A stretch of DNA of 64,000 nucleotides from Psammoneis japonica (lineage: Eukaryota), in assembly GCA_008632985.1 (NCBI GenBank), contig QPGO01000088.1:186001-250000 (forward strand). The letters are read 5' to 3'. Below are positions 17,031-64,000 of this stretch, piece by piece. The position numbers and the translations under genes were made by a program. The notes under the pieces were generated by a model. That model saw nothing but the letters and a program-made list of their open reading frames with translations, was not told the origin of the DNA and searched no databases. The stretch's first letter is position 1; each line of letters starts with the position of its first letter.

Positions 17031-17045
17031 TCTTGATGATCTTTC

Positions 17046-17065
17046 CACACACACACACACACACA
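17046..17065. repeat. (CA)10 microsatellite at the junction of two TE relics
   Basis: Direct reading. Confidence 0.9.
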
Positions 17066-21500: not shown

Positions 21501-21691
21501 ATCACGTCTGAACCCCTTGCCATCATTGCCAAGGACAATCCCACCACCTGTGCCATTTGTGCACACGAACACGATTTGCTTGAGACCAACAACTGGAAAC
21601 ACTTGCAGACTGTCACTCTGCACCAGAAGAAGCTGTTCTGCATGGCCAATCAAGCCAAGTTGCACTCCTTTTGTGCTGCACCATGATGCAA

Positions 21692-25505: not shown

Positions 25506-25565
25506 GGCTTTCAACCAATCTGACCTTGAATTTGTTGCTGTTGACCCCTCAAGCAAACTGGGGAG

Positions 25566-25811
25566 TGACAGGATTTGAACAAGATTTTAGTTTGTCACAC
25601 ATGATTGTGTGCGCTCTTGGCTCTGCGTGCGTCACGCGCTGCAGTTTGCTTTCAAGCCACTTGACTCACAAGAACAATGACAGCAGTGCCGACATCAACA
25701 ACACCAGTCTTTCGGCTCCTGTGACGGCCTCTGCATGGAGACTCATCTGCCATTTAGACAGCAGCAAGGAGTTGTTGTTTTCTTCCACCCAGTCATCTTC
25801 AATTTCTGTCA
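25566..25811 (+). repeat. 3' LTR of element D
   Basis: Same length and termini as 18317-18562, preceded by PPT. Confidence 0.95.
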
Positions 25812-28800: not shown

Positions 28801-29894
28801 AAGGTGCTCCAACCTTGTGCACCTCCTTCTGTTTTGCACTGTTTTGGTGCACTGACCATGAGGCAGCTCCAAGCAATGCAAAGGCAAGAACAGCAACAAC
28901 AACGGCAGTGATTGCCGCTGCATCCAGTCCATCACCCAAACCGGCGCTGTTGAGCGATGAGCGTTGAAGGCACTCCAATGGTGGGTGATTTTTGTGTGTT
29001 TTCTCCACTGCGGTTCCAAGTAAAGTGCGCATGGCATTTAGTGTAGGGAGAATGGAAAAGCGCACTTTCACCGGCACGAAAGAGCCAAATTCCAAAATAA
29101 GTGGTCCCCGACGAAAGCAAGACGGAACCTCCCTGAGCGAGGCGGGCGGGCACCGCATGACATCAGCAGAGGTTCGCACACTCTACACAAAATGTGATAG
29201 TGAAACACCGTTGGTCTGCCCGGCAGTTTTCTTCTCTCTTTTGGACTGCGTCGTTGCACAAAAATCAAAAATCTGTTACATCACGATGATGCACAATAAT
29301 CGCCACAACGGAATCATCAGTGATTGGTGCGGGACCGAATGATGGCCATGGGTGAAGGAGAAGTGTAAAGAAACCCATCTGTGGAGCGTCGACACCGTCT
29401 GTTTCAGGCTGGTACTCCGTTCCATAGAGAAGATTCGAGCACTTCTCTTTCGCTTCATCATTCGAGATGGGACTAACGATGTCGGCGGAGCGACAAAAAG
29501 AGGGAACTGCTTCAGTTTCAATTTGTTAACCCGCACGACGCGATTGAATCCTTCTTTGTCCTTAATGCACCTTGAGCTCGATTCCAATGCTGATGGTTGT
29601 CTCTTGTCAATGGACTACGATGACTGTCGTAGCGCTTGCGACGTCGTTGCATACTTTGATGTCGTCGTTTTTGTTTTTGTACCACGCTGCTCCATTTCTT
29701 TTGGGTGTCTTCTCTTCAGCATTCCTTCCTCGCCTGGGTTCACGCTGGGGTATTCGTTACGGTATGCCCCAAGGCGCTTGTCGTCGATACGTGCTGGAAT
29801 ATTTCGGCGCTGATCGCCTGCGTATTTTTCCTATGGATTCGTCGTGTTGGAGTAAGAGCAGAATGCCGTTGACAAAGCCACTGGGGGGTTATTT

Positions 29895-38410: not shown

Positions 38411-38499
38411 GTGCGGCATTTGTTGCAAACGATCGCTTGGCAGAACGAAACTTCGAAGTAGAGATTCCCTGTTCTTGTTGTTGTTGGAATCACTGTCCA

Positions 38500-44400: not shown

Positions 44401-45830
44401 ATGGATCTTCTTGAGCTTGACTGCGCAGCATCCAGAACAAGAACTTGCAAGCTTTTCTGGACTGACTGTTGGAAGAACCATTCTCCACTCTTTTTTGACA
44501 CTCACATGCTGCCACTGACAGTGCTGGTTTGCTTGATTGTTTCAGATGCCAGTTGTTCAATGCTCCAGAAGAGACACTCTGACACTTGCAGCGGTGGTGC
44601 TGCATTGGCTGTTTTCTGTTTTTTGTTTTTCAGCAATCTTGATCTGCAGGCCTGATGCTCTGCAGCACACTCACCAATCCATCTTGAGCACCAGAACCTG
44701 ACACATGTGATGCCAAATCCAACAACCCATTCAATTCTGCCTTGCATGCAAGAAGTTTGTTCAGTGCTTGTCTCTTCTTTCTCATTCTCTTCAGCCACCA
44801 GTGCTGCTGCATTTTTTGACTTGAAAATTGGTGCAAGTGCTGATGATGATCAACAACAGGTTTCAGAGGTGGCCCAGATCTGGTGTTCTCTCATGCCAGC
44901 ATGCATTCTGTCTGGCACAAACCAGCTCTGAGACAGCGGCCTTCTCACACTTCATTTGTGACAAATCATTGCATGAATGGGGGGGCCCAGAAATGTGCCT
45001 TTTGCACCAACACTTTGCTGCCACAGCTTCAACTTGAGTGCTGAAAAGACAAGTGGTGCTTGTGCACAACATGCTGACATTTGAAATGCCTGGACAAAAA
45101 ACCAATGCAAAACCACAGACAAACTTCTCCACTTGCTGCAACAGCCAAAAGTCAGCCTTTGCAAACACCCCTGCATCAGCATGTCCATGGTCCGCACATT
45201 GTCCGCATTGCACGAAACCGCAAGAACATTGTTCTGTGCTGCTCCTGGCAATCAACCAAGGCAGTCATTTGACACCTGACTTGACCCAACAGGTCAAAGC
45301 ACACTTCAATGATTGTGTCGGGCAGTTTCACAGTGTCAAACAACCTGAGATGGCTTTCACCACAAGACAAACCCCGGCAAGAGGCACACATTTTTGGTCA
45401 TGAAAATTGCCACGTTGTAGAAAAGTGCAACACAGTTTTCATTGGAATTGATGTGGAATTCCACAGGGATGCAGTTTGGAGCACCATCATTTGAACAATG
45501 ATGTTCATGCCGAGTGAGGCATTTGACGTGCTGGCTCCAATTTCACGCATCACTGCCTTGTGGTGGTGAGTGGCCACCACAGGAGCTCCAGCTCAAAAGC
45601 TTGAGAGCTCATTTTCTGCCCCGCAACCACCAGCCATTTGTGCAACAAAGAGCATGGCTGGGAGCAAGGTGGAGAGGAGTGCATTTCACTCAATCGTTGC
45701 CAAAAGAAAGCGACGCAAATTTTTGGGCAAGCACTTCAACACAAGCTTTGTGACAGAGCACACCAATTGAAATGCAGGTGCACACAATCCTGCTCCATCA
45801 GTGCAGCATGTTGACCCCTGTTTTCTTCAT
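38500..45830. mobile_element. heavily mutated repeat/relic block, unclassifiable
   Basis: TpA and CpG both nearly absent, TG/CA saturated, no intact ORF or termini recognised; TE origin inferred from composition only. Confidence 0.5.
43481..43670 (+). pseudogene. two tandem protein-kinase subdomain VIb-VII fragments
   Basis: CNLKPENVLLTKEESAGSLNITLFEFG and LKPENILLTKKESGSSNLKSID resemble RDLKPENILL...DFG. Confidence 0.6.
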
Positions 45831-46256
45831 TCATTAGACATCTTTCTCAAATGTGCGGACATCTGCGATTTTTGCCAACCATCGCTCGAACACAACCGGT
45901 CTCAAGAAAAAAGCCATGTTTGAGTTTGTCGTATTTATTCCGATCTGTATACATTTCAATGAATCCAGTGACGACGTTGAATTTAAAAAGTAGCTCATAA
46001 CCTAGTTCAATTCGAACCACCACATTTTGTGGACTCTGATTGGCTGTTGCTCGTCGAGCCTTCTCATCCAAGCTTCTGTTACGTAGATTCACGTAGATAA
46101 TGTACCAGCGTTGGTTCCGCGTGTTATTTGCGCTCAACGTGCCGATCCGCAAAATCTGGCTGGTGTCAAAAGATCGTCTCACACATCCTGCTGAATTCCT
46201 TCCCATTGTTCTGCCAATCCACTTTTAGCTTCTTGTCGTTTGTGTTTTGCTCAACC

Positions 46257-49200
46257 ATGCGTTTCGAGACGTTGCTGTTCACTGGCCTCGTGGCATGGTT
46301 GGGAAACCATTGTGTGACGGCGTTTGCTCCAGCCACTGTCTCTAAGTTGAGCAAGGCTACCAATAAAAGATTCGCAAATAGCAGAATTCTGTATCCACTT
46401 TCTTCGGCAGTGGAAGATTTCACCACTGAAGATAAGCCCTCCACTTCTTCTCCAGTCTCACCCGTGTCCATCTCCAAAGTTTTGGATTTGACAAAGCCGA
46501 TTCCATACGAAGAACTGACGATTGGTGTCGTAAAGGAAACATTCAAGGGGGAAAATCGTGTCTCGGCTACTCCAGAAAGTATCGCTCCTCTCGTCAAGGG
46601 TGGATTCAAAGTTATTGTCCAGAAGGGAGGTGCGTATTATAAGTGTAGAGGCTGATTTGCATGTCACTGTATGATTTGCTTTCATCATAATTTCATAATA
46701 TGCGTCTCGCTCATCCTTTTTCTGTATGATACTGGCAACTGGCATGCACAGCTGGAGAAAAGGCTTCCTTTGGCGACGAGGCATATGAAGAAGCCGGTGC
46801 TACGATTGTTTCCGCCGAACAGCTCTATGCGCAAGCAGACATTATTACTCGAATCCGTCCTCCCGAGGGTGACGACATTGCCAAACTTACAGGCAAAACT
46901 CTAGTGGGTATGGTTTCTCCGGCGCTCAATCCAGAACTCTACGAGCAATTGACCAAACAAAATACCAATGTGTTGGCTTTGGATTGCGTACCACGCATGT
47001 TGAGTCGGGCTCAGGCCTTTGACGTTCTTTCGTCTCAAACAAATATTGCTGGATACCGTGCAGTGATTGAGGCGGCAGAGCAATTTCCACGATTCTTTGC
47101 CGGGCAAATGACGGCTGCTGGCAAGGTGCCTCCGGCCAAGGTTCTAGTGGTGAGTTTGCATTATTCTTTTAGTGTTTGAAACTGTCTTTTTCTCGATACT
47201 CATGCCTTGTCTACTTCATGGCTCGTTTTTAAAAAAGCTTGGAGTTGGTGTCGCTGGACTTGCCGCCATTCAGACGGCAAAAAACATGGGCGCAATTGTA
47301 AGGGCCTTTGATGTGAGACCAGTAACCAAGGAGCAGGTGGAATCCATGGGCGCCACGTTCCTTGAAGTGGACTACGAAGAAGACGGAAGTGGTCAAGGAG
47401 GATACGCCAAGGAAATGTCGGATGGTTTCAAAAAGGCACAAGCGGCCATGATGCTTCAGCAAGCCAAGGAGTGCGATATCATCATTACCACGGCTCTCAT
47501 TCCCGGACGCAAGGCACCCACCTTGGTGGATCAAGAAATGCTTAGCGTGATGAAGCCTGGTTCTGTTTGTGTCGATTTGGCCGCTGCCAATGGTGGAAAT
47601 GTGATGCAGACTGTTCCGGACGAAGTTATCGAGACTGATAATGGTGTCAAGATTATTGGTTACACCGACTTGCCATCGCGATTGGCATCCACGGCGAGTA
47701 ACCTGGTGAGTTTTCATCTCTTTTTTTTTCATCGTGCCTGTCGCTAGTTCTCCTCAGCTTCAACTGACAGCCTCTACTTTTGCGCTCGCACACCAGTTTG
47801 GAAACAATATTGCCAAGTTTGTACTCAGTATCGGACCTCAGACTACCAAGGAAAAGGGTTTCTTCCAGATTGATATGGAAGATGACGCAGTGCAGAACAT
47901 GTTGATCTCCTACAATGGAGAAGCCCGTTGGCCGGACAAGATCACTCCGTACCAACTTCCACCTCCGCCACCATCGGAAGCCAAGGAAGAGGAAGAAATG
48001 ACCGAGGAAGAAATCATGGCTCTTGCGGATGCCAAGCAAAAGGATGTATTTGTCAAAAACACGGGAATTGCGTCACTCTTGGCTGCTGCCCTCCTTGCCT
48101 TTGGATTTACCACGGACTCTCCCGAGGCCGTCTCCTTGATGTCTACCTTTGCCCTTGCCGGGCTTGCCGGTTACCAGGTTGTTTGGGGTGTAGCACCAGC
48201 TCTTCATTCCCCCTTGATGGCTGTAACGAATGCCATTTCTGGAATGACCGCTATTGGTGGAATGATTCTGCTTGGGCACAATGTCGAAGCGGGTGCTGGA
48301 CTGATTCCAAACTCCCCGTCGCATTGGATGGGAGCAATTGCCACGGCCCTTTCTTTTGTCAACATTGCTGGTGGATTCCTTGTTTCTGGAAAGATGCTCG
48401 ACCTTTTCCGACGCCCAACGGATCCCAAGGAGTACTTTGAGCTTTACGGCATCCCCGCGTCTCTCCTTATTGCCGGTATAGCAGCATCTGCCTTTTTGGG
48501 TATCGGAGACTTGTCCAGTGTTTCTGGCTCCGTTGCGATTGCTTCCTCTATTTGCTGTATTGCTGCAATTGCAGGTCTTGCCAACCAAGAAACCGCCAGG
48601 ACAGGAAACGTTTTGGGAATGGCTGGTGTGGCCTTTGGTCTCGCCTCAACCACGGCTGATATGTCCATTGCTGGGGCTGGTACTGCTGCCTTTGAACAGG
48701 TTGGCTTGTTGGGTGGACTTGGAGCGGGTGTCGGTGCTGTAGTGGCGTCGGGTGTCGGGCCAACTGAACTGCCTCAAACCGTTGCCGCATTCCACTCTTT
48801 GGTTGGTTTGGCTGCAATGGCTGGCGCCGCTGGTGAATACTTTGGAAGTTCTGGTGACCTTTCTGCCGGAACACTTACAGCCATTTACCTTGCGATCTTT
48901 ATTGGTGGTATTACCGCTACAGGTTCGATGATTGCCTACGGAAAGCTTGCAGCGTTGCTCGATTCCAAGGCCCTTAGTTTACCAGGAAGGGATGCACTCA
49001 ATGTCGGTATGCTGTCGGTTTGTGCTCTGGGCATGGCTGCATTCCTCAATCCTGATCTGGCCACTAGCGTTACCAGCATGGACCCAGAAACTCTGAGACT
49101 CGCCAGTCTCGGGGTGGTTGGAGTTGTTTCCTCTCTTCTTGGACTTCACTTAACGGCCAGTATTGGCGGAGCTGATATGCCTGTCGTTATTACTGTTCTT

Positions 49201-50108
49201 AATTCATACTCTGGATGGGCATTGTGCGCTGAAGGATTCCTTCTCAACTATCCTCTTCTTGCACAAGTCGGTGCCCTGATTGGCTTTTCTGGAGCTATTC
49301 TAACTTGGATTATGTGTGAAGGTGCGTTGAATGAATTTGAAATGTTCGGTGCGCTCTGAGACGCCTCGCTTAACTGCTTCCTCCTTGTGTTGTACCTACT
49401 CGTAGCTATGGGAAGAGATGTCGTGTCTGTCATTCTTGGTGGTGCAGGAACTGAAGCCCCCTCTGGTGGTGAGAGCACAATGGAGATCGAGGGTGAGATC
49501 ACCACCACCAGTGTGGATCATGTTGTTGAGGCTTTGCTTGAAGCCAAGAGCATCATGATTGTGCCGGGCTATGGTTTGGCGGTTGCTCAGGCTCAGTTTG
49601 CTATTGCGGATGTAGCGGCGAAGCTCAAAGAAATGGGCAAGGACGTTCGATTCGGGTGAGTTGGTACTTATTTTTGGACCCTTTTATCGTGTCGTTCTTT
49701 TGTAACTGAACATAGGCATTGTTCGTTCTCTGTAGTATTCACCCGGTTGCAGGACGGATGCCAGGACAGCTGAACGTCCTTCTCGCGGAAGCGAGCGTTC
49801 CGTACGATATTGTGTTTGAGATGGAAGAAATCAACGAGGATTGGGATGACGTTGATATTACACTTGTCATTGGCGCAAGTGACACTGTCAGCAGTGCAGC
49901 GGAAGATGACCCCAACTGCAGCATTTACGGCATGCCAGTCATTCGCGTCTGGAAGAGTGGGCAAGTGTATGTTCTCAAGAGATCGATTGGAAATGCGGGA
50001 TACACCGGGATGCAGAACCCAATATTGTTCAAGGACAATACTGACATTCTTCTCGGAGACGCCAAGGATACATGCGAAGCTCTCCGATCCGCCATTTCCA
50101 GTGCGTGA
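46257..50108 (+). CDS. NNT: proton-translocating NAD(P) transhydrogenase (alpha-beta fusion) with bipartite plastid-type presequence; 6 exons
   Basis: [70 protein letters not shown]; in-frame introns 46630-46751, 47150-47237, 47706-47796, 49322-49405, 49656-49735. Confidence 0.96.
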
Positions 50109-50166
50109 GAACCTATCGCTGCTTTTTTAAAGAGCCTCATGGACCGTTAGACTCTAGACGTAGTAC

Positions 50167-50331
50167 GTATGGTGATGACTGATAGAACATTATTTGTCTT
50201 ATACTGTAAAGTCTATGTAGCACTATGGAAGGGCTAAAGAGCGTGTGGTTGTATGGTAATGACTGATAGAACATTTGTCTTACACTGTAAAGTCTATGTA
50301 GCACTATGAAAGGGCTAATGAGCATGTTGTT
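50167..50331. repeat. two tandem ~83-bp copies between convergent 3' ends
   Basis: GTATGGT.ATGACTGATAGAACATT...CTGTAAAGTCTATGTAGCACTATG repeated at 50167 and 50251. Confidence 0.9.
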
Positions 50332-51551
50332 TTAAAGATCCCCGAGCGTCGAACCGCCCATGCTCGCCATGGGGTTCTCTGCCTCAGCTTGTGCTTTCCT
50401 GGCAGCTTCTTCGGGATCAGCCCCCATGGGAAGAGATGGAACAAGCACAACGTTGCGGAAGTCAATCTCTGATTCCTTCTGCATCATGTCGACCAAGTCG
50501 TGCAGAGACAACAGGTTGATGGCTGGTTCTGTACCCTGTACTTCGGCTGGAGCCTGTGACATGAATTGTTGCCATGTTCCTACCATACTTTGCAAGCTAA
50601 AATACATGGGAAGAAGCGTCTCGGGTTCACCGGACTCGCCTTCGGTCTGCTGTCTCTGCATGCGCATTTGAGCAATCATAAAAACAGGCACTTCATTGTA
50701 GGTGGCATTAAACTTGGGAGATTCAGTCATGGCCTTTTTGATGGCAGCCTGGGCGATCTCTTGCGTCATCTCTTCGCCGTTTTTGAGCTTCTCGCCGTCT
50801 TCCGGGTTCATGGTGAGTAGCATTCTTGCTCCAAGAAGGTCGCGCGTGTCGGGAACAATTCGGTACTCAATGCTTCTCGATACTTCCTCAGCTCCGTCTT
50901 CGCCGGGTGATTTGAGCTGCAAACAAAAAGGAAATGAGAAAAGAGAACTTCTCCGAAACACCATGACAAAGCCATTCGTATAACTCACTGTAACACCCTG
51001 CGGATCGTCGTTGTTCAGCATTTTGAACCAGATTTTGCCAAGAGAAAAAGCGGAAACCCGAAGGTTCATGTCACCTGACGCACCCGACTCCTTGAGTTGA
51101 TGGAGCGTAGCATTCGCCATCTGAGGAGACATGAAAAAGTAAAAAACGCTGCTATCCGGTTCAGGTTTGAGCACAACACCAGCGCCGTTCGCGTCAGTGA
51201 CGGCAAAAACGGGGATGTTCGCTAGCCATTCTTCGACTTCTTCCTGACTGAGAGCCGGGTACATTTTCCGCTCAACAGAAACACCATCCTTTTCATCCGC
51301 TCTATTTTAAGAATTCAAAACGATTAGTATGTGAATATCGAAATGATGAGAGGATCACGTGTCACAATACGCACACAATCAATCCGAAGGAGAGAAAAAA
51401 CTCACTGCTTGTTCTTGCCGCCAAACAAAGCGCCTCCGCGACCGATACCAAAAAGAGCCGACTGCGAAATGGCTCGAGTGAAAGCAGTTGATGCCGATGC
51501 AGAGGATGTTCCCGCAAGAAGGAGGAAGATAGAGAGCAGCGTTCGCATCAT
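50332..51551 (-). CDS. TIC22: Tic22-family plastid import chaperone; 3 exons
   Basis: Signal peptide MMRTLLSIFLLLAG; L..IPVFAVTD and VPVF / LPMYFS repeats typical of Tic22; introns 51405-51302 and 50988-50917. Confidence 0.75.
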
Positions 51552-52080
51552 CTTCAAGCCCGTTTCGCAGTGATTTGTGATTTTTGTGGTCGTGTCGCGC
51601 CGCGAGGATGATTCAAGTCGCAGTACAGAAACAGCGTAGAAATCTACGGAGAGAGGCAGTGTAATTTCCACGCGGAACACGACGGGGTGTGCTCCACTTG
51701 GCATTGAACTCAATAGCGGCGGAGGAGCTATGAGCCGGATCGCGACGGATGACGACGGCCAAAGCGAGTATTCTACTGTAGGGCCTCTAGCTTCCTAACA
51801 TTTTCCCTTTCATGGCTTTACTGGATTTTACGCCTTTCTATTTACAGTGACATACTTTCTAAGGAGATTATTCTATCAAAAGCACAAACACGTCTCGCTC
51901 TCTACAGTTTGAGGCATTTTCTTGTCCGTCTAACTAGAAGTTGGTAACTTAGAGAGTATTTCTTGAGATTTGAAGCTTCATTATAGTGTCCTTGTAGACT
52001 TTTTTCATTATACGTATACCGATCCTTTTTCAGAAAAGGATCTTTGTAGCAACATCGGACAGCGATACAAGAAACATTTA

Positions 52081-53410
52081 TCAAGGCTTTCTACAGACTC
52101 GCTTTCCATCTAGCTTGTCAAAGTCAAGGTTCTTCAACCGCACAACACCCATAATTTGTTCAGGCAAAGTAGCTTCGGAAGTTCCTTCGAGTACAAACGC
52201 CATGTCAACAACTAGCGACTTGGCCTGGTGATGATGAAAAAGATGCAAGCGAGGACTGTGTGAGCAACAGAACCAAGACAACACACCAGACCGCGTATCC
52301 AAGAATATTACTTACATATCCGGTGCTCAGCTTCACCACCTTTTGAGCTACAGCATTGCTACCAATGTCAACCACTAGCTCCAAAAATCGCTCGTTCCGA
52401 ATATATATTTGGTTGAGCTTGTTACCAATGATGGATGGCTTGGATCCCACAGCAGACTTGACAACAAAGTTTCCCTCTTTTATCTTTGGGATGAGTTTGA
52501 AGGTCGAGTCACGGAACTTATCTGAGTCTCCGAAAAAGAATCTGTTTGCCAGTCGTCCAAACGGAGTCTTTTGCGATCGAATCAAATCCAAATTGTCAAC
52601 AGCAAAGTACATGACCAAATGATAATGAGGTGGTCCAGGAACTGCTAGATTGACTGCAAAGACAAAAGGTGGCAGTTCCCTGACACCCGTCTCCTTTTCA
52701 CGTTTGAGCGCTCTTTGAATTCGCTCCCCCGGATGACTGCAAAGCCCGCTCATAAGTTGCGTCTGGCATCTGACCAAGTCCACCGTCATGAGTCTAAAGG
52801 CAGAGGGTGCTGACGGAGTTTTCTTGTTGCTGGACATGTACTTTGCCCCCCGAACCTTAAATGAAGTACCCGGTGCTTCTGCCCAGGCCTGGAGTCGAAG
52901 CGGAGGAGGGTCTGACAAACAGTGACTCTTTGTTGAGGCTTCCAACGGAACACTTGAACTGCGGTGTACTGTGGCAGGTCGAGGACCGTACGAAGAGGCT
53001 GAACGGTGTAGCTGCTTCTTTGGAACTATTGGAGGCTTTGACGAGGATACTGAAGACGAGCTCGACGACAAGGAAGCTGTTGACGACATGTTCAGCTCTG
53101 ACGAAACTGGTTTGATGCTGTGGTCAAGCCGTGGCAGCGGAACAATCACTGTTGGTCGGCCCTCTGCAAATTCGTGTGCGTCATCTCGAGCTGAAACTAC
53201 GACCGGTGAAAGACTCCGACGAGGACAAATCGCACTTGGAGAAACGTCTCCGGCTCTTCCAGGAACAGGCGAGAGACGAACTTCAATATCATCGTCATCT
53301 TCGATCAACAACGTGCGTTCTGACACGCTTTCTTCACAAGAGTGGTTCGACGGACGCCGCACCGGTCGCAACGAATTAGTCGTCGCTCGAACTGCTACCG
53401 AGTTTGTCAT
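52081..53410 (-). CDS. EDR2 C-terminal (DUF1336) domain protein; 2 exons
   Basis: FKVRGAKY..K, FKLIPKI..G.FVVKSAVG, ELVVDIGS, VVDMAFVLEG..LPE; intron 52315-52225. Confidence 0.88.
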
Positions 53411-54274
53411 TTTACACCGAGGGAGTCAAGCAGCAACGCAATAAATAGATGCAGTCGATAAAGCCACAACAAAGCGGTTGTTGCACCCAACCAAAGTCTC
53501 AATTGATGCAACAAGACAAAATGTCTCAACCCGTTGTCTTGTCGATGTTCGCTTTCTCTCTCTCCTCTTGGTTTTTTAGCGGCGCGATGTGGGCGACGCT
53601 GTACGGGATTGCCGTAGAACTTCACTATGAGCGAACAAAATTCATTCTTACTTTCATTCCCATAAAGAAGGGAATGTTTCAATTCCTTTGTGCAAACGGC
53701 ATGATAAGATAAATGTATAAATTTCTATAGGTTTATTAAATATTTGTTAAGTGTTTTACCAGATTCCTATTTAACGCTCAACGTCAATGCTGAATTCACA
53801 CGACTCACAAAGCTCCTCATCCATGAAGATGATCATGATCGAAATGGAGGGAAAATTGTTTTCAACGTACTCATAGCTTTATACAAGAATCTTACTAATT
53901 GCAGTATGTAGTATTGGCGATCTGAGCTTCGCAACGCTCCCATGACGAACGCCAACAAAAGCAAGCCATCACCCCACGCCACCACGCGCGCGCCACGTCA
54001 CCCAAAGTTTGAAGAGTCCATAAGCCTATATCTGATTGTTTAGGCGGGAATTCACGACATCACCTCGCAACATCCCGATCAAATCAAAAAATGCCGAAGA
54101 GCTAAGGCCGAAGAATCCGAATGCCGATTTAGATTGTCGATCCCTTCTTTCTCACTTACTTCCGCCTTTTTGCTCACTTCGTCGGTCGGTCATCGGCGAT
54201 CCGCGCTGCTGTTCCTAACCTACTAGCATTATAAAGACGCTATCCACTGTATCACGTTCCTTTGCCTCCGCATA

Positions 54275-56173
54275 ATGTCAGCTCTCTTTCCCGACGCAGA
54301 TGTCGCTGCTCTTTTGTTGGCAGGAGGACAATCGGTCAGCGGTGCTGTCGGTTACGGGTTGCTCTTTTTGCTAACCATGTCTCTGTTTGCTGGATCCGAT
54401 GCTGGAAACATGTCGAAGGATTTCTCGTGGCAGTTTCGACTGGCGGCTGCTCTTCGGACACCCATTCTTGTGTTTGTGGTGGTCCCCATGTCCTTTGCGC
54501 TCAACCTATTTAGGTAAAACTATCTCACCTGGCTGTCTCACACATTCCCATTCCTGCATGTCTTCAATCTCATGGAATTTCGTTCACTTTCTTGGGTGCG
54601 CCCCTGCCTCGATAGGTCGTTGCGCACATATTGGAGAGGAACTCGTATCGATTCAGATAGAGGGGCGGGTCACGAGAAACGCGTACAACAGTTGGTAGAT
54701 CAGATTAAACAGTGGAACGATGCGGGAAGGAAGCAGAGCATGCGCACGGCCCGCCCAAACTGGGCAGGCATGAGCACCAAGCTCGGCTCGAACAAGGGGG
54801 GCTCTTTTCTCGTAAAGACAGCTCATCTAGATCATATCTTGGAGGTTAACGAAGAGGAGATGACCATAACCGCAGAGCCTGCGGTTACCATGGGCGACAT
54901 TACAAACGTGTTGTTGCCCCGCTCACTAGCGTTGTTGTGTCATGTCGAAATGGAATCACTTACCATTGGCGGCGCCTCCATGGGTCTCGGTATGGAGACT
55001 ACAAGTCACCGCGTCGGTTGGTGGCAAGAAACAGTGGTGGAGTATGAGATTGTTACGGCCGAACCAACTCCACGGGTACTCAAGGTGACCCGCGAGTCTG
55101 ACCCCGAACTGTTTTATGCCCTTCCCCACAGTGTGGGAACACTTGGATTTCTTGTGTCGGTCAAGGTGAGAATGACGAAAACCAAGCCTTACGTGCGTAT
55201 GCACTATATTATGACAAAGTCGGCAAAGGATCTTTGCGAAACCATGACTCGTCTCGGGGAGGCTGACGATAAGGCTCCATATTTCCTTGAGGCCACCGCT
55301 TTTTCGAAAGATACTGCTGTAGTGCAATGTGGTGAGATGTGTGATGCTCCCAAGAGTCGAGAGGAGAAGAACATGCTGCAATTTATCAACTTGTGGTACA
55401 AGCCATTCTACTTTAAGCATCTTCAGTCACTCCTCGAGGCTGGTCATGATACCTATGACGAAATAATCCCGCTCAAGCATTACTACCACCGCTTCACCCG
55501 ATCCATCTTTTGGGAGATTGAGGAGATGATTCCGTTCTCAAACCATCCTCTCTACCGTTTCTTCTGGGGATGGATGGGTGCGCCTGAGGTCAGCTTGTTG
55601 AAACTATTTCAAGGTCCCGTCATTCGCAAGAACTCCTGCTACGCGCATGTCGTTCAAGAATCATGCATGCCTGTGAGACGCCTCGAAGAAGGTCTTGAAA
55701 GGTTCTCAAAGTGGTGGGACATTTATCCACTTTTAGTGTTCCCTCTCCGAGTCTACGACCGTGGGGAACAATCGGGATTTCTGAATCCTCGCCAGAGAAA
55801 CCTTTGCCCAAAGCCCGCAGAAGAAGGAGGCGGTACTCGTGACTGGGGAATCTGGGTCAATCTTGCTGCGTACGGTGTCCCCTCCATTGTCAAGGAAGGT
55901 GGCACTTTTGATCCCAAAAAGACCGTTCGCGAGTTTGAGCATTGGACGTTGGATATCGGAGGATGGCAAAGCTACTACACAGATATCTTCTGTACCCGCC
56001 GCGAGTACCGCCAAATGTTTGACCACTCGCTCTGGGAGAAATGCCGTGACAGGCTTGGTGCCGCCGATGCGTTTGGGGAGCCATATGACAAGGTTAGACC
56101 CGAACCTGGAATTGTCGATTTGTCGGAGGAAGAAGCCGCGGAAGCAGCAGCGGAATCTGCTGCAAGCAAATGA
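54275..56173 (+). CDS. DHCR24: FAD-linked Delta24-sterol reductase (DHCR24/DWF1/SSR family); 2 exons
   Basis: GHEKRVQQL..Q, RTARP.W, LTIGG..MG.G.ETTSH, LFYALPHSVGTLGFLV, QMFD, YDKV; 102-nt intron 54514-54615 removes an in-frame TAA. Confidence 0.9.
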
Positions 56174-56444
56174 TTGCTGTCGTGCATCCAGTCATTTCTG
56201 CAGCCACAGTCTTGATTTCCCGTTTCGTTGCATTGTGGGACTGTTGCGAGATCCGGGCCATCGAGGCAATGAATATCTTTTAACATTTAACGTGTTACAG
56301 TTACATCATAGTAATCTCCCAAGCACTCGAAAAAGAGATACTAATATTAACATTAACGTGTTACAGTTATAACATAATAAGTGAAACATCCAAATCGGTA
56401 CACAACATCATTAACCGTACACAGAGCACCGTAACTGCTTCATT

Positions 56445-57902
56445 CTAATATATCCCAGGGATGAGAATGTAAGGGACCTTCTCGCAGTATGCATCCCAGT
56501 CCTTTCCGTATTTGGCTTTGCAGCGTTCCGAATCGCGGATTTCTCGATGGATAAGCATCGGAAGGAAGAAACAGGCAAAGAAATAAGGCAAAAAGTGGGT
56601 AAATCCACACGGGATGCAGAGGAGAAGAGCCAAGCATATGTCGGCTGCGTAGTGTGGCTTCCGAACATATGCCCACCAACCGTCGATGATCAAAGTCGAC
56701 CCAGACTTGGTGGTGAGATACTTTGGATTTTTCAGAGTCGCATTGGGAAGCTGAGGAAACGCAAAAGAGCGTTTCACAAATGCCCCTGTGAGCTGCTGCG
56801 CTCTAAAACGGTTTTTCTGCGCATTTGCCTCATCAAAGACCCAGTATGCCATAATGATGGCCACTCCTAGCAACACCACCGCCCATGTAGGCAAATCGGG
56901 CAAAGCTTCGGCCTGAGAGTAAATGAAACGCCCATTGAACGTGTAGGCAAAGGCAACCCCGGCCAGGTTCCAGAAAATAAGCATCCACCCCCATCGCTCA
57001 TGAAAGATATCCCAGGTATACGGAATGCTTTCCTCTCCTTTCATGACTGCATTGGTGTAGAGCCCATGGATGAGGAGGACGACCCACATTCGATTGGGGA
57101 TATACCCCAACTCGTCTCGAAGACATAGAGCACAGGAAACCTCTAGAGAGAATAAAAGCATCCAAGACACGCGGACTTCTGCCCACATTTTCAAATCAAT
57201 CTTGCCAATGCGTGGGTTAAGGTACTGTCCCATTACAAAATCGTACAGAAAGGTTCGGAGACTTCCATCAGATCGTCCCGTTCTCACACACTCTAGGTAC
57301 ATGACAGTTGCCACTGAATCGGCAAACAGAATGCCGGTAGATAGCATCGCACCACTGTTCCAGAAGAGTGTTTTAAAGTCAAATATGCCAGTCCAGTGTG
57401 CGACAATGGCACAAGCTCCACTGACATACCAACTCGCCAGCGCATTGCAATGATACTCGAGGCGGCGACCTCCCTCTTCAGGAATCCGAAACCCAAGCAC
57501 CTTCACACCGGGTAGGACCACACAAGAGAGAAGTTGCGATGCAATGAGGCAACCATAAATCTTCACAGACGTTGCCGTTGGTGTGGCCTTTGCAATCACT
57601 TCAGGATCGAGCGGGAAAGGATTCCCGAGGCAACCTTGGTTGAACTCAGCAGACCACCAGAGGTAGTAGCATAGGAAGTGGCTGAACACCACAAGCGCTA
57701 AGTATCCAAGATTGTCTGAGATTGAAATCTCTTTATGGTCAACCGTCTTTTCGTTTTTCAGCTCCTTTTGTTTGTCACGTCGCCTATTGGACAGCACGTT
57801 GTGCACCAGAAGCACAGACGCAGCAGCGAGCATTGTGCGACCCTGTGACAACGTCGTCACCACATCTTTCCACGCCGGTGTCATAGAAACCGTTCCTGAC
57901 AT
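56445..57902 (-). CDS. ERG4: ERG4/ERG24-family sterol reductase, closest to Delta24(24-1) reductase ERG4
   Basis: LNPRIG..DLKMWAEVRVSW, KGEESIPYTWDIFHERWGWMLIFWNLAGV, DGWW..VRKPHY, RC..KYG.DW..YC..VPY. Confidence 0.85.
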   Translation of the reverse strand: MSGTVSMTPAWKDVVTTLSQGRTMLAAASVLLVHNVLSNRRRDKQKELKNEKTVDHKEISISDNLGYLALVVFSHFLCYYLWWSAEFNQGCLGNPFPLDPEVIAKATPTATSVKIYGCLIASQLLSCVVLPGVKVLGFRIPEEGGRRLEYHCNALASWYVSGACAIVAHWTGIFDFKTLFWNSGAMLSTGILFADSVATVMYLECVRTGRSDGSLRTFLYDFVMGQYLNPRIGKIDLKMWAEVRVSWMLLFSLEVSCALCLRDELGYIPNRMWVVLLIHGLYTNAVMKGEESIPYTWDIFHERWGWMLIFWNLAGVAFAYTFNGRFIYSQAEALPDLPTWAVVLLGVAIIMAYWVFDEANAQKNRFRAQQLTGAFVKRSFAFPQLPNATLKNPKYLTTKSGSTLIIDGWWAYVRKPHYAADICLALLLCIPCGFTHFLPYFFACFFLPMLIHREIRDSERCKAKYGKDWDAYCEKVPYILIPGIY

Positions 57903-58289
57903 TGTTTGGCCGCCACCGAAAGCTTAGGGCCCTACAGTACTTGTATTCCTGGGTCGCAGTGTTCAATAATGTCTTGACGAAATGCAATTTTGCTGATGCA
58001 GAATGATGAGGGCATCGTCCAACATCCGAAAGATAGAACATGAAATTCCAAGAGAAGCACCGGTGTGAAGAACACACGAAGAAGCCAGCCTTCACACGCA
58101 CATACGACGTCCTACGTGGCTTTACGCTAACCTCCCTTTCGCGCGTGCCTGCCGTGGCGGTGCCTGTCATACAGTACGGTAAATCCTTGGGGCGGTGCCA
58201 CTTACCGTACTTCAGCACAGATTCTTATTCCCGGAAACACCTGCCTGTCTCATCGTACAAGCACCGTGCATTAGAAGCTGCAGCGCCTG

Positions 58290-60930
58290 CTTTTTGATGC
58301 GTGAGCAGTGTTGTGAGAAACAAACTGGCACCACAAGAGTCACCAATCAACAAGGGTTTCCTTCCTCTTGTTCTCACCACTTTTTCATCTCACCATGAGG
58401 AAGGTGGTTCACAATCTGGATGATTGGTGGCTTTTCACTGTGCCTCACTTTTGCACGGTGCTTTTGCACAATCACTTGAGAACACACTTCATCTGTTTTT
58501 GAAGCCTCAGCAGCAGTGCCCCCATTGCAGCCAAACCCAGCAGCCAGTCATTGACCCCCTGGAAAAATCTGACAAATCTGCACTCCAAAACGTTTGTTCT
58601 AAAGAAGCGCATCTTTCTCATCCACGCAAAAGCACGCGTCTTTCATCCTCTCCCTTGTTGGCCTCTGCTGTGCAGCCCAACAAAACACACGATTGAGGAA
58701 ATGTGGCATGGGTGACTCTGGCCAAGTGAGTGCTGTTTCCAGTGCCCAATGTCACAAGAAGCGATGCAAACACAGTCTCAACAAATTTGAGGTGCAGCCA
58801 CACACCCTGCTTCACCCTGCATGGCTGGTGTCTCAACCTTGCTCATGGGCCAGCCAGCAATGTCATGTGCATGTTGTGCTTTGTCAACCACCTTAAATCT
58901 TTGGAAGCTCCCAGCATGTGCCTCTGAGCTGCCAGTGGGGCCCAGCAGCAATCTTCTTGATTTGCCTCCCCGTGTGGATCATGTTGACTTTTTTAGAAGG
59001 TCTGAAATTCTCAACTTTGTGCTGATGATCCAAGCAAAATGTTCAATCACATGCATCAGAAAGCCATGTTGCCCAGCATGGCTCCATCACCCATTTGCCA
59101 TCCAAAAATGTCCTGAAAACTGTGGCATCATTGCCAAGGCTTTTTCCAATCACCCTGGCACAGAACAGCAGTTCAGCCCACTTTTCATCTTTGCCACAAA
59201 AATCTTTACCCCCAAGTTTGTGTCAGAAGGTGGGTGAAATTAGATGGTTTCTGGAGAATCAAGAAAAAGTGCTCTCTGGCACTGCTTTTGCAAGAGAAAA
59301 TGTCAAAACTCCAACCCAGCATTGGAGTGCATTGTTGATGCAGGCAATGCCAAGCTCCCATCACACAACAGATGTTTTTCATGGCTCAACACATCTGCTG
59401 CAAAATGGCTGTCATGAACACCAAAGCTGTGAAAATGGTGCTGCACTGTCTGGCCAGGCAGTGCACCTGGCAAAAAAGTGGCTTTCATTGGTTGTCCTGG
59501 CTTCAAAGCTGTGTGCCAGGAGAAAGCACAGCAGACATTGACTGGCCCATCTGGAGATTTGCGTTGGCAGCTGGCTGCAGCTTGAGCCAGTCACAAAAGC
59601 GCTCTCATGTGCTGCATTCCCAGGTGCAGCAGCATGTGGCTGCAGAGCATGTGAATTTTTAGAAAGCCAAGGAACAATGTGCTCTTCTTCTTGCTCAATG
59701 TGCAGCATTCAGAGTCTGTCATCAAACCAGAGTGAAGCTCTGGTCAGCCACAAAAAGTTGCCTTTGCAGCACTGCAAGGTTGCAAACACCAGCAGAGCAA
59801 GCTGTCATGTCATTTGGCATCATCAACTGCCCAGCTGCACAGCTGCATGTGCACATGTGTGTCATCATGGTGCGTGATGTCAAAGACAACACACCCAAGG
59901 TCAAGCTGTCACAAAAATCACACAGGCATTGCATCAAGAAGAAATGACAGCAGCAGATCAACCAGTCAATGGTGCCTCCAGCTTCCTTGAGAGCTGCTGT
60001 TTTGAAGCCATTGTTTCTGTTTTGCATGTGTTGGCACACACAGAGGGGTGTGTGCTGTGTTGGTTGGGCAGACCTTGGCAGAGAAAAGAAAAGAAGAAGC
60101 TCAAGTGCAAGAGCTGGCAAAGAAGCTGACTTGCCTCTGAAACAATGTGCAGCAAAGAAAGAGAGCATGTGGTGCCAGATCACACATCTGAGCATGTGGT
60201 CTGCAGATCCCATGCTGACAACAAGTGCTTTGCTTCACATGGACATGCTGAAACATGTGAAGTGGGTTCTGCATGCACAGGACGAGTGTGCAGCGCCAAT
60301 GTTTCAAAAGAGCTGAGGAGGCTCCAAAAGCCCTGCTGTCATGTGGGAGCACTGGCTCTCAGCAAAATGCAACTTGCAAGGCAACTCTTTAAAAATGCCA
60401 TTTTTTGTTGCCCATGTGTGTTGACCCTCCTCCTGCTGCTGCAAAGGGCAAAGGTGCGCCACACATGTTGCTGGCTGCCACACCTCTGTTGCAACAAAAT
60501 CGGCCACATGCACTGCACAAAAGTTGAAAGGGAGCTCTTGCTGCATGAGAATTTCCTTTGCATGCTCTAAAAGCCCTGTTGCCATGTGGGAGCACCAGCT
60601 CTCAGCAAAATGCAACTCAAGCATTTCTGCAAAAATGCCACTTTGTTTTGCAAGTGTGTTGCCCCTCCTTCTGCTGATGCTGTGGAGGGCAAAGGGGTGC
60701 ACTGCTCACATTGCTGCCAATTGTTGCAACAAACTTGGCCACATGCACTGCATCAAGTTGAAAGCTCTTGCTGCACGAGAATTTCCATTTGCATGTTCCT
60801 TGGTTTGCTCTTCTCCTCACTTGATTGTGCAACCTTTTTCTGCTTGGCAGTCTGAACATGCCCTGAGAGACAACCCCTTTTGGTTGTGTGCTGCTGGCTG
60901 GTCCACAAATGCGAGCACCAGAATTTCTAG
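58290..60930. mobile_element. hypermutated relic between genes with ~240-bp tandem duplication (about 60326-60800)
   Basis: About ten TpA in 2.6 kb, CpG scarce; AAAAGCCCTG.TG.CATGTGGGAGCAC repeated at ~60326 and ~60569; termini not identified. Confidence 0.55.
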
Positions 60931-61183
60931 TCATGTTACAATTGCTGCCACAGAGCACACAGAGAAAAGGTAAACAGGAACAGAAGTCAACCGAAGTTCG
61001 ACAAGGGAAAACATCATCATAAGCAAACGATGGAAAACGGGAAAAGCGCGAAAATGTTGCCAAAATCCGGAAAAACTCTTTCTCCTTGCAGATTTCGATT
61101 TTCGATGAAAAAAGATACAAGATACACCTCACATCTCACATCTATCGCACATCCACATCGCACACAAACCATTCGTGTCAACG

Positions 61184-62395
61184 ATGAAGAAACAGATCGT
61201 CGCCGCTTTCCTTGGAGCGGTTTGTGCTTCTGCGTTTGCACCCTCTGCTTTTGTTTCGTCAAAGAGATATGGTAAACATGCTAACGTGGCTTCCAAGCTT
61301 CAAATGGCGCTTGAAGACGGACAAGTCCCACTAGTCGTCGGTGTTGCCGCTGACTCTGGATGTGGAAAATCTACTTTTATGCGTCGACTTACCTCCATCT
61401 TTGGTGGAGACGTCGTCGGACCTCTTGGTGGTGGATTCGACAACGGTGGATGGGAAACGAATACCCTTGTTTCCAACCTAACCACGGTCATTTGCCTTGA
61501 TGACTACCATCTCAACGACCGCGAAGGGCGAAAAATTACTAAACGCACTGCCCTCGACACCAAAGAGAACAACTTCGATTTGATGTATGAACAACTCAAA
61601 GAGCTTAAGAGTGGCAAAACTATTACTAAACCCATTTACAACCATGTGAATGGAACTCTTGACGAACCTGAGAAGGTGGAAGCGACACCCATCATCATTA
61701 TCGAAGGACTCCACCCCATGCACGACAAGCGTGTTCGTGATCTTCTCGACTTTTCTCTTTATCTTGATATATCCGACGAGGTCAAGCTCAACTGGAAGAT
61801 TCAGCGTGATATGGAAGAGCGTGGTCACTCTCTTGAATCTATTCTCCAGTCTATCGAAGCACGTAAGCCTGATTTCGACGCGTACATTGCTCCTCAGAAG
61901 GAATTCGCCGACATGATAATTGAAGTCCTCCCCACCCAGCTTGACGAGGATGACAAAAAGACTCTGCGCGTGCGATGTATCCAGAAGGAGGGAATTGAAA
62001 ACTTCAGCCCCTGTTATCTTTTTGACGAAGGATCAACTGTTGAATGGAGTCCATGCGGAAAGAAGTTGGCTTGCTCATACCCTGGAATTAAGTTTGCATC
62101 GGGCCCAGACGCCTACTTCGGAAATGAGGTACAGATTCTTGAAATGGACGGAACTTTCGATAACATTCAAGAGATGGTCTATGTGGAATCATTTTTGAGC
62201 GAATCTTCGACAAAGTTTTACGGTGAGCTGACGCAAGCTATGCTTGCTCTGGCTGATGCTCCGGGCAACGATAACGGAACTGGCTTAATGCAAACTCTCG
62301 CAGCTTTTGCCATTAGGGAACTCTATGAGAGGAAAACGGCGGCCATGAAGCTTGCAAAGTTTGATTCAATGATGAAGAAGGAGATGTTAAGATAG
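61184..62395 (+). CDS. PRK: phosphoribulokinase, plastid-targeted (copy 1, with C-terminal Cys pair)
   Basis: ASAFAP presequence; GVAADSGCGKSTF, VICLDDYH, IEGLHP, WKIQRDM.ERGH, PCGKKLACSYPG. Confidence 0.97.
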   Translation: MKKQIVAAFLGAVCASAFAPSAFVSSKRYGKHANVASKLQMALEDGQVPLVVGVAADSGCGKSTFMRRLTSIFGGDVVGPLGGGFDNGGWETNTLVSNLTTVICLDDYHLNDREGRKITKRTALDTKENNFDLMYEQLKELKSGKTITKPIYNHVNGTLDEPEKVEATPIIIIEGLHPMHDKRVRDLLDFSLYLDISDEVKLNWKIQRDMEERGHSLESILQSIEARKPDFDAYIAPQKEFADMIIEVLPTQLDEDDKKTLRVRCIQKEGIENFSPCYLFDEGSTVEWSPCGKKLACSYPGIKFASGPDAYFGNEVQILEMDGTFDNIQEMVYVESFLSESSTKFYGELTQAMLALADAPGNDNGTGLMQTLAAFAIRELYERKTAAMKLAKFDSMMKKEMLR

Positions 62396-62972
62396 TACCT
62401 TGTGTACTTTGTTACGAAGCGAAGCGCGACGAAACCTTGGAAAATTCGTCTGGTCCTACCTACTCTAGGGCCTACGACTACAGCACAAAAGTAAATAGGT
62501 CTAAAAACTATTATAAAAACAGAATGCATGCGTCACATCTCCAGATCTACTCTGTGGCTACTACTAGCTAGAGTAGCTACTAGCTAGAGGGGAAACTATC
62601 GTACTTTGCAGTTAGTCGTACAGTAGTTTTCGGAACCAGGTGGCGGATCTGGCGCATTTTTCCTTGGCTGGGAGTTCACCACGCAGCCGGCCGATGTTGT
62701 GCGCTTCGCCTCGCAGTGTGAACAGAAGAGCTTAGCGCTGACAAAAGCTAAATAAATTTCACTTCGCTTCTTTGTAAGGGGTGATCCGGACACGTATGCG
62801 CCTTCATCCGTGTCTAAGATTTGCCACGACGTCAGGCCTCCGAACCCTTTTCTACACAGACCCTGGTACATATTCTACGGGAGTCAGGTCGAGGTGTAGC
62901 CACACGCACGAAGATCGCGACACCCCTCACATACATCATTCCTCTCACAATTTCATAGAGAACGTTTCGACA

Positions 62973-64000
62973 ATGAAGTTTGCTTGCATCGCCGCTTTCG
63001 GAGCCGCCACGGTTTCCGCTTTCACCCCCTCGGCATTCATGCCTGCCAACAAGCTCCGTGCTGTTGCCCCGGCCTCCAGCTCAAGCTTGAACATGGCGCT
63101 CAAGGATGGTCAAGTGCCCATTGTTATTGGAGTTGCTGCTGATTCTGGATGCGGAAAGTCGACTTTCATGCGTCGCCTTACCTCTATCTTTGGTGGGGAT
63201 GTCGTTGGACCTCTCGGGGGTGGATTCGACAACGGTGGATGGGAAACTAACACCCTTGTTTCTGATCTTACCACCGTTATCTGCCTTGATGACTACCATC
63301 TCAACGACCGTGAGGGCCGTAAAGTCACCAAGCGCACTGCCCTCGACACCGAAGAGAACAACTTCGATTTGATGTTCGAACAAGTCAAGGCCCTGAAAGA
63401 AGGCAAGACTATCAAGAAGCCTATTTACAACCATGTAAATGGAACCCTTGACGAACCCGAGACCGTCGAGCCCACCCCCATCATCATCTTCGAAGGTCTT
63501 CACCCCATGCACGACGAGCGCGTCCGTGACCTTCTTGACTTCTCCCTTTACCTTGATATCTCTGACGAGGTCAAGCTCAACTGGAAGATCCAGCGTGATA
63601 TGGAAGAGCGTGGACACTCTCTTGAGTCCATCCTCGAGTCTATCGAAGCCCGCAAGCCCGATTTTGACGCCTACATTGCTCCTCAAAAGAAGTTCGCCGA
63701 CCTTGTCATCGAAGTGCTCCCCACCCAGCTCGATGAGGAAGACAAGAAGACTCTTCGCGTTCGTTGCGTCCAGAAGGAAGGAGTTGCCGACTTTAGCCCC
63801 TGCTACCTCTTCGACGAGGGATCCAAGATTGAGTGGACTCCTTCTGCCGAGAAGCTTTCTTCCCCTGCTCCAGGAATTAAGCTGGCCTACGGTCCTGAGG
63901 AATTTTATGGCCAGCCTGTTTCTGTTCTTGAGATGGATGGAACTTTCGATAACATCCAACAGCTTGTCTACGTTGAATCTCAATTGAGCAACACCTCCAC
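62973..64000 (+). CDS. PRK: phosphoribulokinase, plastid-targeted (copy 2, runs off window)
   Basis: MKFACIAAFGAATVSAFTP presequence then the same PRK motifs; absent from the ORF track because no stop lies in the window. Confidence 0.96.
   Translation, partial: MKFACIAAFGAATVSAFTPSAFMPANKLRAVAPASSSSLNMALKDGQVPIVIGVAADSGCGKSTFMRRLTSIFGGDVVGPLGGGFDNGGWETNTLVSDLTTVICLDDYHLNDREGRKVTKRTALDTEENNFDLMFEQVKALKEGKTIKKPIYNHVNGTLDEPETVEPTPIIIFEGLHPMHDERVRDLLDFSLYLDISDEVKLNWKIQRDMEERGHSLESILESIEARKPDFDAYIAPQKKFADLVIEVLPTQLDEEDKKTLRVRCVQKEGVADFSPCYLFDEGSKIEWTPSAEKLSSPAPGIKLAYGPEEFYGQPVSVLEMDGTFDNIQQLVYVESQLSNTS

Follow-up and report, generated by a model that had tools for sequence, protein, structure and literature searches.

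Flanking-base bias of the surviving TpA sites in TpA-depleted, repeat-derived blocks of a Psammoneis japonica contig

In the chlorarachniophyte alga Bigelowiella natans, integrated giant-virus and virophage DNA has been reported to undergo A>G/T>C hypermutation restricted to TpA dinucleotides (Mettrop et al., bioRxiv 10.64898/2026.01.13.699255). Mettrop and colleagues proposed an ADAT2-like deaminase as a candidate; in the main text of the preprint, no flank-context analysis, gradation or effect of the second base after A (+2) was found, the supplementary tables of mutated sites lying outside the search. Full-text literature searches, judged from their result listings, gave no description of such a process in a diatom and no flank rule. 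The DNA considered here is a 64,000-nucleotide stretch of Psammoneis japonica (GCA_008632985.1, contig QPGO01000088.1, positions 186,001 to 250,000), hereafter the window, in which TpA-poor blocks alternate with genes. As far as the preprint describes them, the two cases have much in common: the changes are near-exclusively A>G/T>C, all fall on TpA to give TpG or CpA, and only foreign or repeat-like DNA is hit while the rest stays normal. They differ in that the Bigelowiella mutations were seen de novo at a greatly raised rate, 231 such events being tabulated, whereas the window belongs to a diatom-like alga and holds the end state. The subject of this analysis is the few TpA that remain in the TpA-poor blocks and the bases that flank them.

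Repeat-induced point mutation (RIP) of ascomycete fungi resembles the window process in being a dinucleotide-specific transition hypermutation limited to repeats, with adjoining genes intact. RIP, however, converts CpA to TpA (C>T) and enriches TpA, which is the opposite direction, and its signature is absent here: per 2 kb of the TpA-poor blocks, TpA is down to 0.02-0.15 of expectation and CpA/TpG are up to 1.6-2.0. Context-specific deaminase footprints of APOBEC3 are reportedly fossilised in long terminal repeat (LTR) retrotransposons, a likeness to the window pattern. Unlike APOBEC3, which makes C>U changes in minus-strand cDNA with a strong strand bias, the window process is A:T>G:C, has turned tyrosine (Tyr) codons into both cysteine (Cys) and histidine (His) codons, and has also hit non-retroelement DNA (the end of a tandem array and a ligase-like pseudogene). 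TadA/ADAT enzymes and TadA-derived base editors share with it a target A that follows U or T, the natural site of bacterial TadA being UAC(G). Their footprint nevertheless differs from that of the window, where TAT is lost more than TAC (odds 0.12 vs 0.28) and the +2 base matters, so that the analogy with the UAC of TadA drawn in the initial annotation of this DNA is a loose one. ADAR, which edits double-stranded RNA derived from repeats, has a 3' G preference, unlike the window process, in which T and C after A are most affected. A preference of ADAR for U before the edited A is mentioned in the discussion of the Bigelowiella preprint (bioRxiv 10.64898/2026.01.13.699255). Amphioxus ADAT2, a natural DNA-adenine deaminase, is described as preferring GAA for A and TCG for C (PMC10354150), which likewise weakens the TadA analogy, and YAC is the stated preference of an engineered TadA variant (PMC13109818). 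No TadA/ADAT-like deaminase gene was present among the Pfam-scanned open reading frames (ORFs) of the window.

Between positions 58290 and 60940, ten TpA remain: CTAA (two), TTAA (two), TTAG (three), CTAG (one) and TTAC (two). Eight of the ten are YTAR (Y, pyrimidine; R, purine), the proportion that the initial annotation had put forward, and in none of the ten is T preceded by a purine. The ratio of observed to expected TA is 0.00-0.11 in twelve 400-bp windows starting at 58401-60601, vs 0.37-0.63 in the ORFs on either side. From 36400 to 45800, 11 of 19 TpA (58%) are YTAR and none is RTAY; the YTAR majority suspected there is present, although the two-thirds then suggested was slightly generous. 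Four stripped blocks, A (1-7000), B, C and D, were drawn from the 400-bp TA profile, and a TA-normal set N was assembled from 7600-12900, 29400-35000, 45900-58200 and 61000-64000 (961 TpA, 36.7 per kb). Most CpG is gone from B, C and D, which are together called the old blocks (117 TpA, 4.0 per kb), and CpG is kept in A. The features used below are as follows.

58250-60950, no strand assigned: block D, an old intergenic block stripped of TA and CpG, with 12 TpA, 9 of them YTAR
35100-45700, no strand assigned: block C, TA-stripped, with 24 TpA, 13 of them YTAR and 1 RTAY
13000-28800, no strand assigned: block B, TA-stripped, with 81 TpA, 40 of them YTAR and 3 RTAY
1-7022, minus strand: element A, a copia-type retroelement crossing the left window end, with RVT_2 and Pol_BBD and 41 TpA
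35080-36400, plus strand: stripped end of a Ser/Pro-rich tandem-repeat array, the whole array spanning 29.9-36.4 kb
18317-18563, plus strand, with a second copy at 25566-25812: dispersed repeat pair, 98% identical as purine/pyrimidine strings and 84% as bases
45900-58200, no strand assigned: largest TA-normal comparison stretch

In the old blocks, 62 of the 117 TpA (53%) are YTAR, 22 RTAR, 28 YTAY and only 5 (4%) RTAY, as against 175 (18%), 222, 272 and 292 (30%) of the 961 TpA in N. With all 16 NTAN tetramers counted, the flank classes of the two sets differ strongly (YTAR/mixed/RTAY 62/50/5 vs 175/494/292; chi2 84.8, p=3.9e-19), and the YTAR bias is seen in each block alone (B 40/81, C 13/24, D 9/12). 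It persists under correction for base composition. From the blocks' own first-order (Markov) composition, a YTAR share of 0.305 and an RTAY share of 0.200 would be expected (binomial p=3.5e-7 and p=8.6e-7, respectively). A further baseline used the purine/pyrimidine skeleton, with TA taken as a share of all YR steps per flank class, relative to N; it is sound because transitions cannot alter the purine/pyrimidine class of a flank. Survival of TA on this skeleton is 0.316 for Y..R, 0.090 and 0.093 for the mixed classes and 0.015 for R..Y, which is the rate order that had been predicted (RTAY lost fastest, then RTAR and YTAY, then YTAR); multiplication of the two half-site effects predicts 0.026 for RTAY, compared with the 0.015 observed. 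Survival of CpG on the same skeleton is flat over the flank classes (0.31-0.40). Similarly, windows chosen objectively by TA observed/expected (<0.25 vs >0.35) gave YTAR/mixed/RTAY counts of 60/44/6 of 110 vs 181/499/292 of 972 (p=2e-18), while the CpG control in these windows showed a small shift in the opposite direction (145/289/153 vs 428/726/314, p=0.03). No 12-mer around a surviving TpA was found twice; therefore, repeats do not inflate the survivor count. The flank bias of TpA in the old blocks is thus confirmed as real and not a matter of composition.

The initial annotation had described a contrast between purine and pyrimidine flanks. This is correct in direction and too coarse. Each TpA has two half-sites, defined by the bases 3' of A on either strand, and with strands pooled the first base after A among survivors is A in 113 cases, G in 61, C in 46 and T in 14 (enrichment over N 2.22, 1.18, 0.65 and 0.23, respectively). 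The corresponding survival odds per half-site are 1, 0.54, 0.28 and 0.12, so that loss ranks T>C>G>A, and the four-level model beats the purine/pyrimidine one (likelihood-ratio p=6e-6). Further, an A at +2 raises the survival odds 3.38-fold per half-site (p=1.2e-14; 3.35 in B, 3.47 in C and D), and an A at +3 had no added effect on TpA survival between the old blocks and N. The spared half-sites are TAAA (3.98-fold) and TAGA (2.83), whereas TAGG (0.23) is lost as much as TAT or TAC. At least one TA-R-A half-site is present in 88 of 117 survivors vs 235 of 961 TpA in N, and the full T-Y-TA-R-A motif in 16 of 117 vs 15 of 961.

The proposal that TAY is hit and YTAR spared therefore holds as a first approximation, but YTAR is slowed, not immune. 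Its depletion is approximately 3-fold in the old blocks taken together and exceeds 5-fold in block C, and CTAG survives no better than the mixed sites (5 in the old blocks vs 50 in N). Individual conversions are also visible: CTAG in unmutated units of the tandem array is CCAG in stripped units at 35280 and 35532, and paralogous contigs show CTAG, CTAA and TTAG at places (6534, 7032, 7478 and 7569) that read CTGG, CTGA and TCAG in the window. The contigs come from the one sequencing run, of three listed, that contains this stretch and is probably its source. These site-level contig differences come from 40 of 2531 differing places and give no per-context rates.

Only the TpA dinucleotide is affected, and T before A is obligatory. 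Of the purines that follow T, a share of 0.964 is G in the old blocks vs 0.666 in N, whereas after A the G share is 0.459 (3703/8064) vs 0.466 (3302/7085), with 0.502 in element A; after A with a pyrimidine next it is 0.512 vs 0.514, and after G 0.471 vs 0.438. The loss of TA is matched by a gain of TG and CA, to which CpG decay adds C>T changes too. Decay of methylated CpG in B, C and D shows no flank bias and is a separate process; in element A, approximately 85-90% of TpA has been lost while CpG is intact. The copies of the repeat pair at 18317 and 25566 differ by 36 transitions and 4 transversions, nearly all of these differences being transitions at YR steps; sites at which one copy has CA and the other TG are uninformative, since the ancestor may have been TA or CG. 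Paralogous contigs aligned to the first 20 kb (80% likeness) differ from the window at 1901 transition and 619 transversion places.

The direction of change is given by the Ser/Pro-rich array (29900-36400), which consists of approximately 177-bp units with higher-order repeats and contains a hypermutation boundary. TA observed/expected falls from 0.4-1.3 (up to approximately 35.0 kb) to 0.00-0.06 (beginning at 35.2 kb). The unmutated sister units at 29.9-35.0 kb were used as an approximate ancestor of the stripped end (the last 1.3 kb); at sites with TG or CA in the stripped end, these units still have TA.

The loss is confined to repeat-like or foreign DNA, with copia remnants in the blocks and TA-normal neighbouring genes. 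A degenerate copia reverse-transcriptase remnant lies in block B (14149-14721, minus strand; RVT_2, E=1.8e-8). Block D, which has an approximately 243-bp internal tandem duplication (60321-60953) and 16 ORFs of at least 90 aa, all without a Pfam family, is flanked by an ERG4/ERG24-family ORF (56445-57923, minus strand) and by the first of two tandem phosphoribulokinase ORFs (61109-62395, plus strand). The latter and its neighbour (62778-64000, to the window end) share approximately 77% DNA identity, an ordinary divergence, and no spill-over was seen in the copy approximately 160 bp from block D, TA vs TG/CA differences between the two numbering 8 in one direction and 5 in the other.

Taken together, these counts show a bias that is graded, confined to TpA and without counterpart at CpG, and the pattern is best described as flank-dependent erasure of TpA to TpG or CpA in old, non-coding, repeat-derived blocks, probably reflecting a substrate preference. 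A process restricted to such blocks would convert TpA to TpG or CpA (A:T>G:C strictly at the T-A step), while ordinary CpG decay would act on the same DNA. Net erasure would be governed by the base 3' of A on each strand, T giving the fastest loss, followed by C and G, and A the slowest, and an A one base further would also be protective. TpA being self-complementary, the effects of its two half-sites would roughly multiply, which would leave RTAY nearly extinct and mixed sites intermediate, with sites like T-Y-TA-R-A (TTTAAA, TCTAAA, TTTAGA) accumulating. The bias would then be the substrate preference of a DNA base-modifying activity, or of the repair that follows it, reading approximately four bases (T-A-N-N). 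As regards the enzyme-like TAY preference proposed earlier, the flank dependence and the strict need for T-A stand, while on the placement of TAY on the edited strand the known-ancestor sites divide, approximately 22 for and 13 against.

Several observations weigh against reading the survivors as a direct record of substrate preference. Only the end state of mutation is visible here, and only from sequence; N is mostly coding and serves only as a proxy for the ancestral composition of the blocks. The stripped array end, which is moderately young, kept TA at none of six aligned YTAR sites (all CTAG). Young element A does not spare YTAR either, with 5 survivors vs approximately 35 expected originals, and its TAY and TAR survival is alike when strands are pooled (0.185 vs 0.224). 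The share of YTAR among TpA is 12% in A, 49% in B, 54% in C and 75% in D, rising with CpG loss. The younger stripped DNA (element A and the array end) has no YTAR excess, and therefore the excess grows with block age. Part of the TpA of the old blocks may have arisen anew through background C>T changes, and flank-dependent erasure, still under way, may then have sifted them.

In element A, which is young, the kinetics should be most directly readable from the survivors. Its TA observed/expected is approximately 0.1 and that of CpG approximately 1.0. On the plus strand, the 41 remaining TpA comprise 29 RTAR, 5 YTAR, 4 RTAY and 3 YTAY, and the initial annotation was correct in noting that RTAY is rare and RTAR persists. 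The meaning attached to these counts does not survive a coding-strand baseline: the coding strand of the element is the minus strand, on which CTAC is frequent in any case, and the persisting plus-strand RTAR are mostly coding-strand CTAC. Against nine control ORFs in coding orientation, coding-strand survival is 0.28 for YTAY (29 sites), 0.145 for YTAR (5), 0.129 for RTAR (3) and 0.052 for RTAY (4), RTAY again being the most erased class. By codon phase the survivors number 15, 10 and 16. The Tyr content of the Pol ORF is 0.5% vs 3.3-4.6% in 12 relatives, and at the 33 Tyr columns conserved in these relatives, which served as an ancestral reference, element A has Cys at 12, His at 9, Phe at 8, Leu at 2, Trp at 1 and Tyr at 1. 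Judged from this comparison, hypermutation of element A is real. No near-identical copy was present in the protein collection, the best relative being 49% identical over a local match. Editing of the element on one strand only was considered and dropped in view of the Tyr>Cys and Tyr>His counts (12 vs 9) and of the strand-aware baseline. Selection on Tyr codons was likewise rejected as the reason for the surviving YTAY, survival being 0.20 in phase 0 and approximately 0.32 in the other phases.

Since TA>TG/CA deletes stops and never makes them, the long open frames of element A are no evidence of function. Similarly, stripped DNA is full of long ORFs because the change erases TAA and TAG and cannot make stops: in the approximately 29 kb of B, C and D there are 137 ORFs of at least 90 aa, of which just 2 have any Pfam family. 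At 7000-7700, between the element A ORF and normal DNA, TA is 0.4-0.5 and CpG 0.4-0.6, six CTAG sites are present, and at several places contigs of the same sample have TA where the window has TG or CA; this segment may be a partly hit LTR.

Among the alternative explanations, chance or base composition without any real bias could appeal to the region from 58290 to 60940 with its just ten sites, but it is hardly credible in view of the comparison with N (p=4e-19) and with the blocks' own Markov composition (p=3.5e-7), the agreement of three blocks, the flat CpG control and the inability of transitions to change the class of a flank. Error-prone synthesis of the DNA polymerase eta (Pol eta) type at WA during repair of silenced DNA has one point in its favour, in that the WA preference of Pol eta includes TA and gives A>G. 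It is very improbable, as the AA>AG comparison suggested earlier to tell Pol eta from a deaminase gave no increase (0.459 vs 0.466, and 0.512 vs 0.514 before a pyrimidine), which argues against Pol eta. A quite different explanation is that the TpA of the old blocks are mostly new, made after erasure by background C>T changes that prefer C after a pyrimidine (ultraviolet- or APOBEC-like), with two routes to YTAR, one to mixed sites and none to RTAY. The rise of YTAR with age by CpG loss and its lack of excess in younger stripped DNA would follow, and TA per CA+TG precursor (0.039, 0.0155 and 0.0032) is near the additive 2:1:0. However, when C/T differences away from YR steps were counted in three repeat pairs lying within the blocks, those after Y (2/145) proved less frequent than those after R (7/109), the reverse of the bias needed, although these numbers are small, and a 9-fold rarity of TA compared with normal DNA would be left unexplained unless erasure continues. 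Regeneration as the main source of these sites is thus improbable.

The remaining alternatives concern the strand or base that is changed. Survivors cannot separate "A before Y" from "A in R-T-A", since both motifs are missing from YTAR and both are present in RTAY. A comparison of products is informative here, as a TAY rule predicts RTAR>RCAR and YTAY>YTGY. A single-strand-reading adenine deaminase would edit the A of 5'-T-A-Y-3', convert mixed sites only on the TAY strand and leave YTAR untouched. The survivor order fits, mixed sites in the stripped array have the predicted product in 12 cases and the other in 6 (6 vs 2 in the best-aligned part), two listed contig differences agree with the rule, and the engineered TadA variant said to prefer YAC (PMC13109818) offers a parallel. 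In bulk, the share of TA loss that went to TG in the old blocks is 0.62 if Y follows and 0.31 if R follows (bootstrap difference 0.10-0.53), and in C and D it is 0.73-0.75 vs -0.04 to 0.18. By block, however, the difference is 0.56 in C, 0.79 in D, 0.04 in B and -0.26, the opposite sign, in A, and the underlying tetramer ratio already spans 0.82-1.62 in sub-blocks that were not mutated, being highest where CpG decay is most advanced. The bulk comparison was therefore set aside as a decisive test of the edited strand, being confounded by natural composition and by CpG decay, which has the same products. Conserved Tyr columns of element A after a pyrimidine gave Cys in 8 cases and His in 7 where mostly Cys is predicted, YTAR is 3-fold depleted with individual conversions visible, and losses are greater at TAT than at TAC, and as great at TAGG as at TAY; such a deaminase is possible but doubtful. 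A duplex-level reading, in which double-stranded R-T-A-Y is favoured, junctions of pyrimidine and purine tracts are disfavoured and either strand is changed at random, agrees with block B, where the survivor bias is strong and yet the product shares are 0.51 and 0.48. It also agrees with the Tyr codons of element A (Cys 12 and His 9 overall, 8:7 after Y) and with the symmetry of the spared motif (full T-Y-TA-R-A in 16/117 vs 15/961). Since the known-ancestor comparisons run 22:13 towards a strand-linked product, and C and D are strongly asymmetric, though confounded, this too is doubtful, and we would not expect it to be correct. Finally, thymine might be modified instead: in silenced repeats, TET/JBP-type oxidation at R-T-A would give 5-hydroxymethyluracil (5hmU) and derivatives beyond it, whose mispairing or faulty repair would yield T>C. 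In sequence, "TAY with A modified" equals "RTA with T modified", because an A>G change is a T>C change when the opposite strand is read, and all counts fit this equally; 5hmU or 5-formyluracil gives T>C. In dinoflagellates, a TET/JBP homologue is reported to make repeat-enriched 5hmU, its inhibition activates marked transposons, and older work is quoted in which T was replaced preferentially in TA and TC (PMC11572971), so that this system is likewise thymine-directed and transposon-enriched. Unlike the window process, the dinoflagellate mark is, in the accounts consulted, an epigenetic one without demonstrated TpA erasure or flank rule, and base-resolution mapping in Breviolum gave no sequence preference (PMC11071213). 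The window dinucleotide table shows no TpC effect, such an enzyme or base is not known from diatoms, and thymine oxidation is accordingly rated unlikely.

The long ORFs of the window encode two tandem phosphoribulokinases, Tic22, an ERG4/ERG24 protein, an NAD(P) transhydrogenase and an EDR2 C-terminal domain, and the DNA looks like nuclear DNA from a photosynthetic, intron-poor, diatom-like alga. Block C, in which CpG observed/expected is 0.45-0.6 until approximately 38.4 kb and 0.0-0.2 thereafter, contains a degenerate NAD-dependent DNA-ligase-like pseudogene at 36940-38102 (OB-fold domain PF03120, E=3.7e-13). Its fragments match residues 489-878 of a 903-aa relative with 42-55% identity, the segment 37695-37495 is inverted, and its Arg>Cys and Arg>stop changes are consistent with CpG decay. 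As it lies inside block C, a non-transposon gene copy has been hit too. It was rejected as a second ancestral reference, its relatives being 43-55% identical over the fragments and its tyrosines too few. In block B, an inverted repeat with 175-nt arms (75% complementary, 149-nt spacing) lies at 24110-24608, and at 18010-20000 the summed contig depth (80% likeness) reaches 5,600-28,000 vs approximately 30-1,300 in the rest of the first 20 kb, which indicates a very high-copy repeat family. In the TA-normal DNA, approximately 420-bp tandem repeats (three units, 83-92% identical) and repeats of 105 and 276 bp occupy 8560-10330, within ORFs at 7930-9243 and 9180-10007 that have no Pfam family.

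An understanding of the flank rule may be of use beyond this locus. TpA hypermutation has so far been reported in one 2026 preprint, from an unrelated alga, in which an enzyme is named as a candidate only, and of the clues that sequence offers, the flank fingerprint points to the enzyme most directly. The graded order T>C>G>A and the +2 effect amount to a prediction that can be tested in vitro with a candidate deaminase or oxidase. The fingerprint could also separate old, fully erased DNA from DNA under continuing attack, and the long meaningless ORFs of stripped DNA are a trap for gene callers and annotators. No match to the four-base footprint was found among the deaminase, polymerase and oxidase preferences looked up. 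We tentatively suggest that diatom-like algae may possess a repeat-directed DNA base-editing defence with a footprint of T-A, then T>C>G>A, then "not A", read on both strands, from which only T-Y-TA-R-A would escape. If this is true, the footprint marks a new enzyme specificity, that of a chromosomal-DNA adenine deaminase or a thymine modifier, belonging either to the same system as in Bigelowiella or to one that converged on it.

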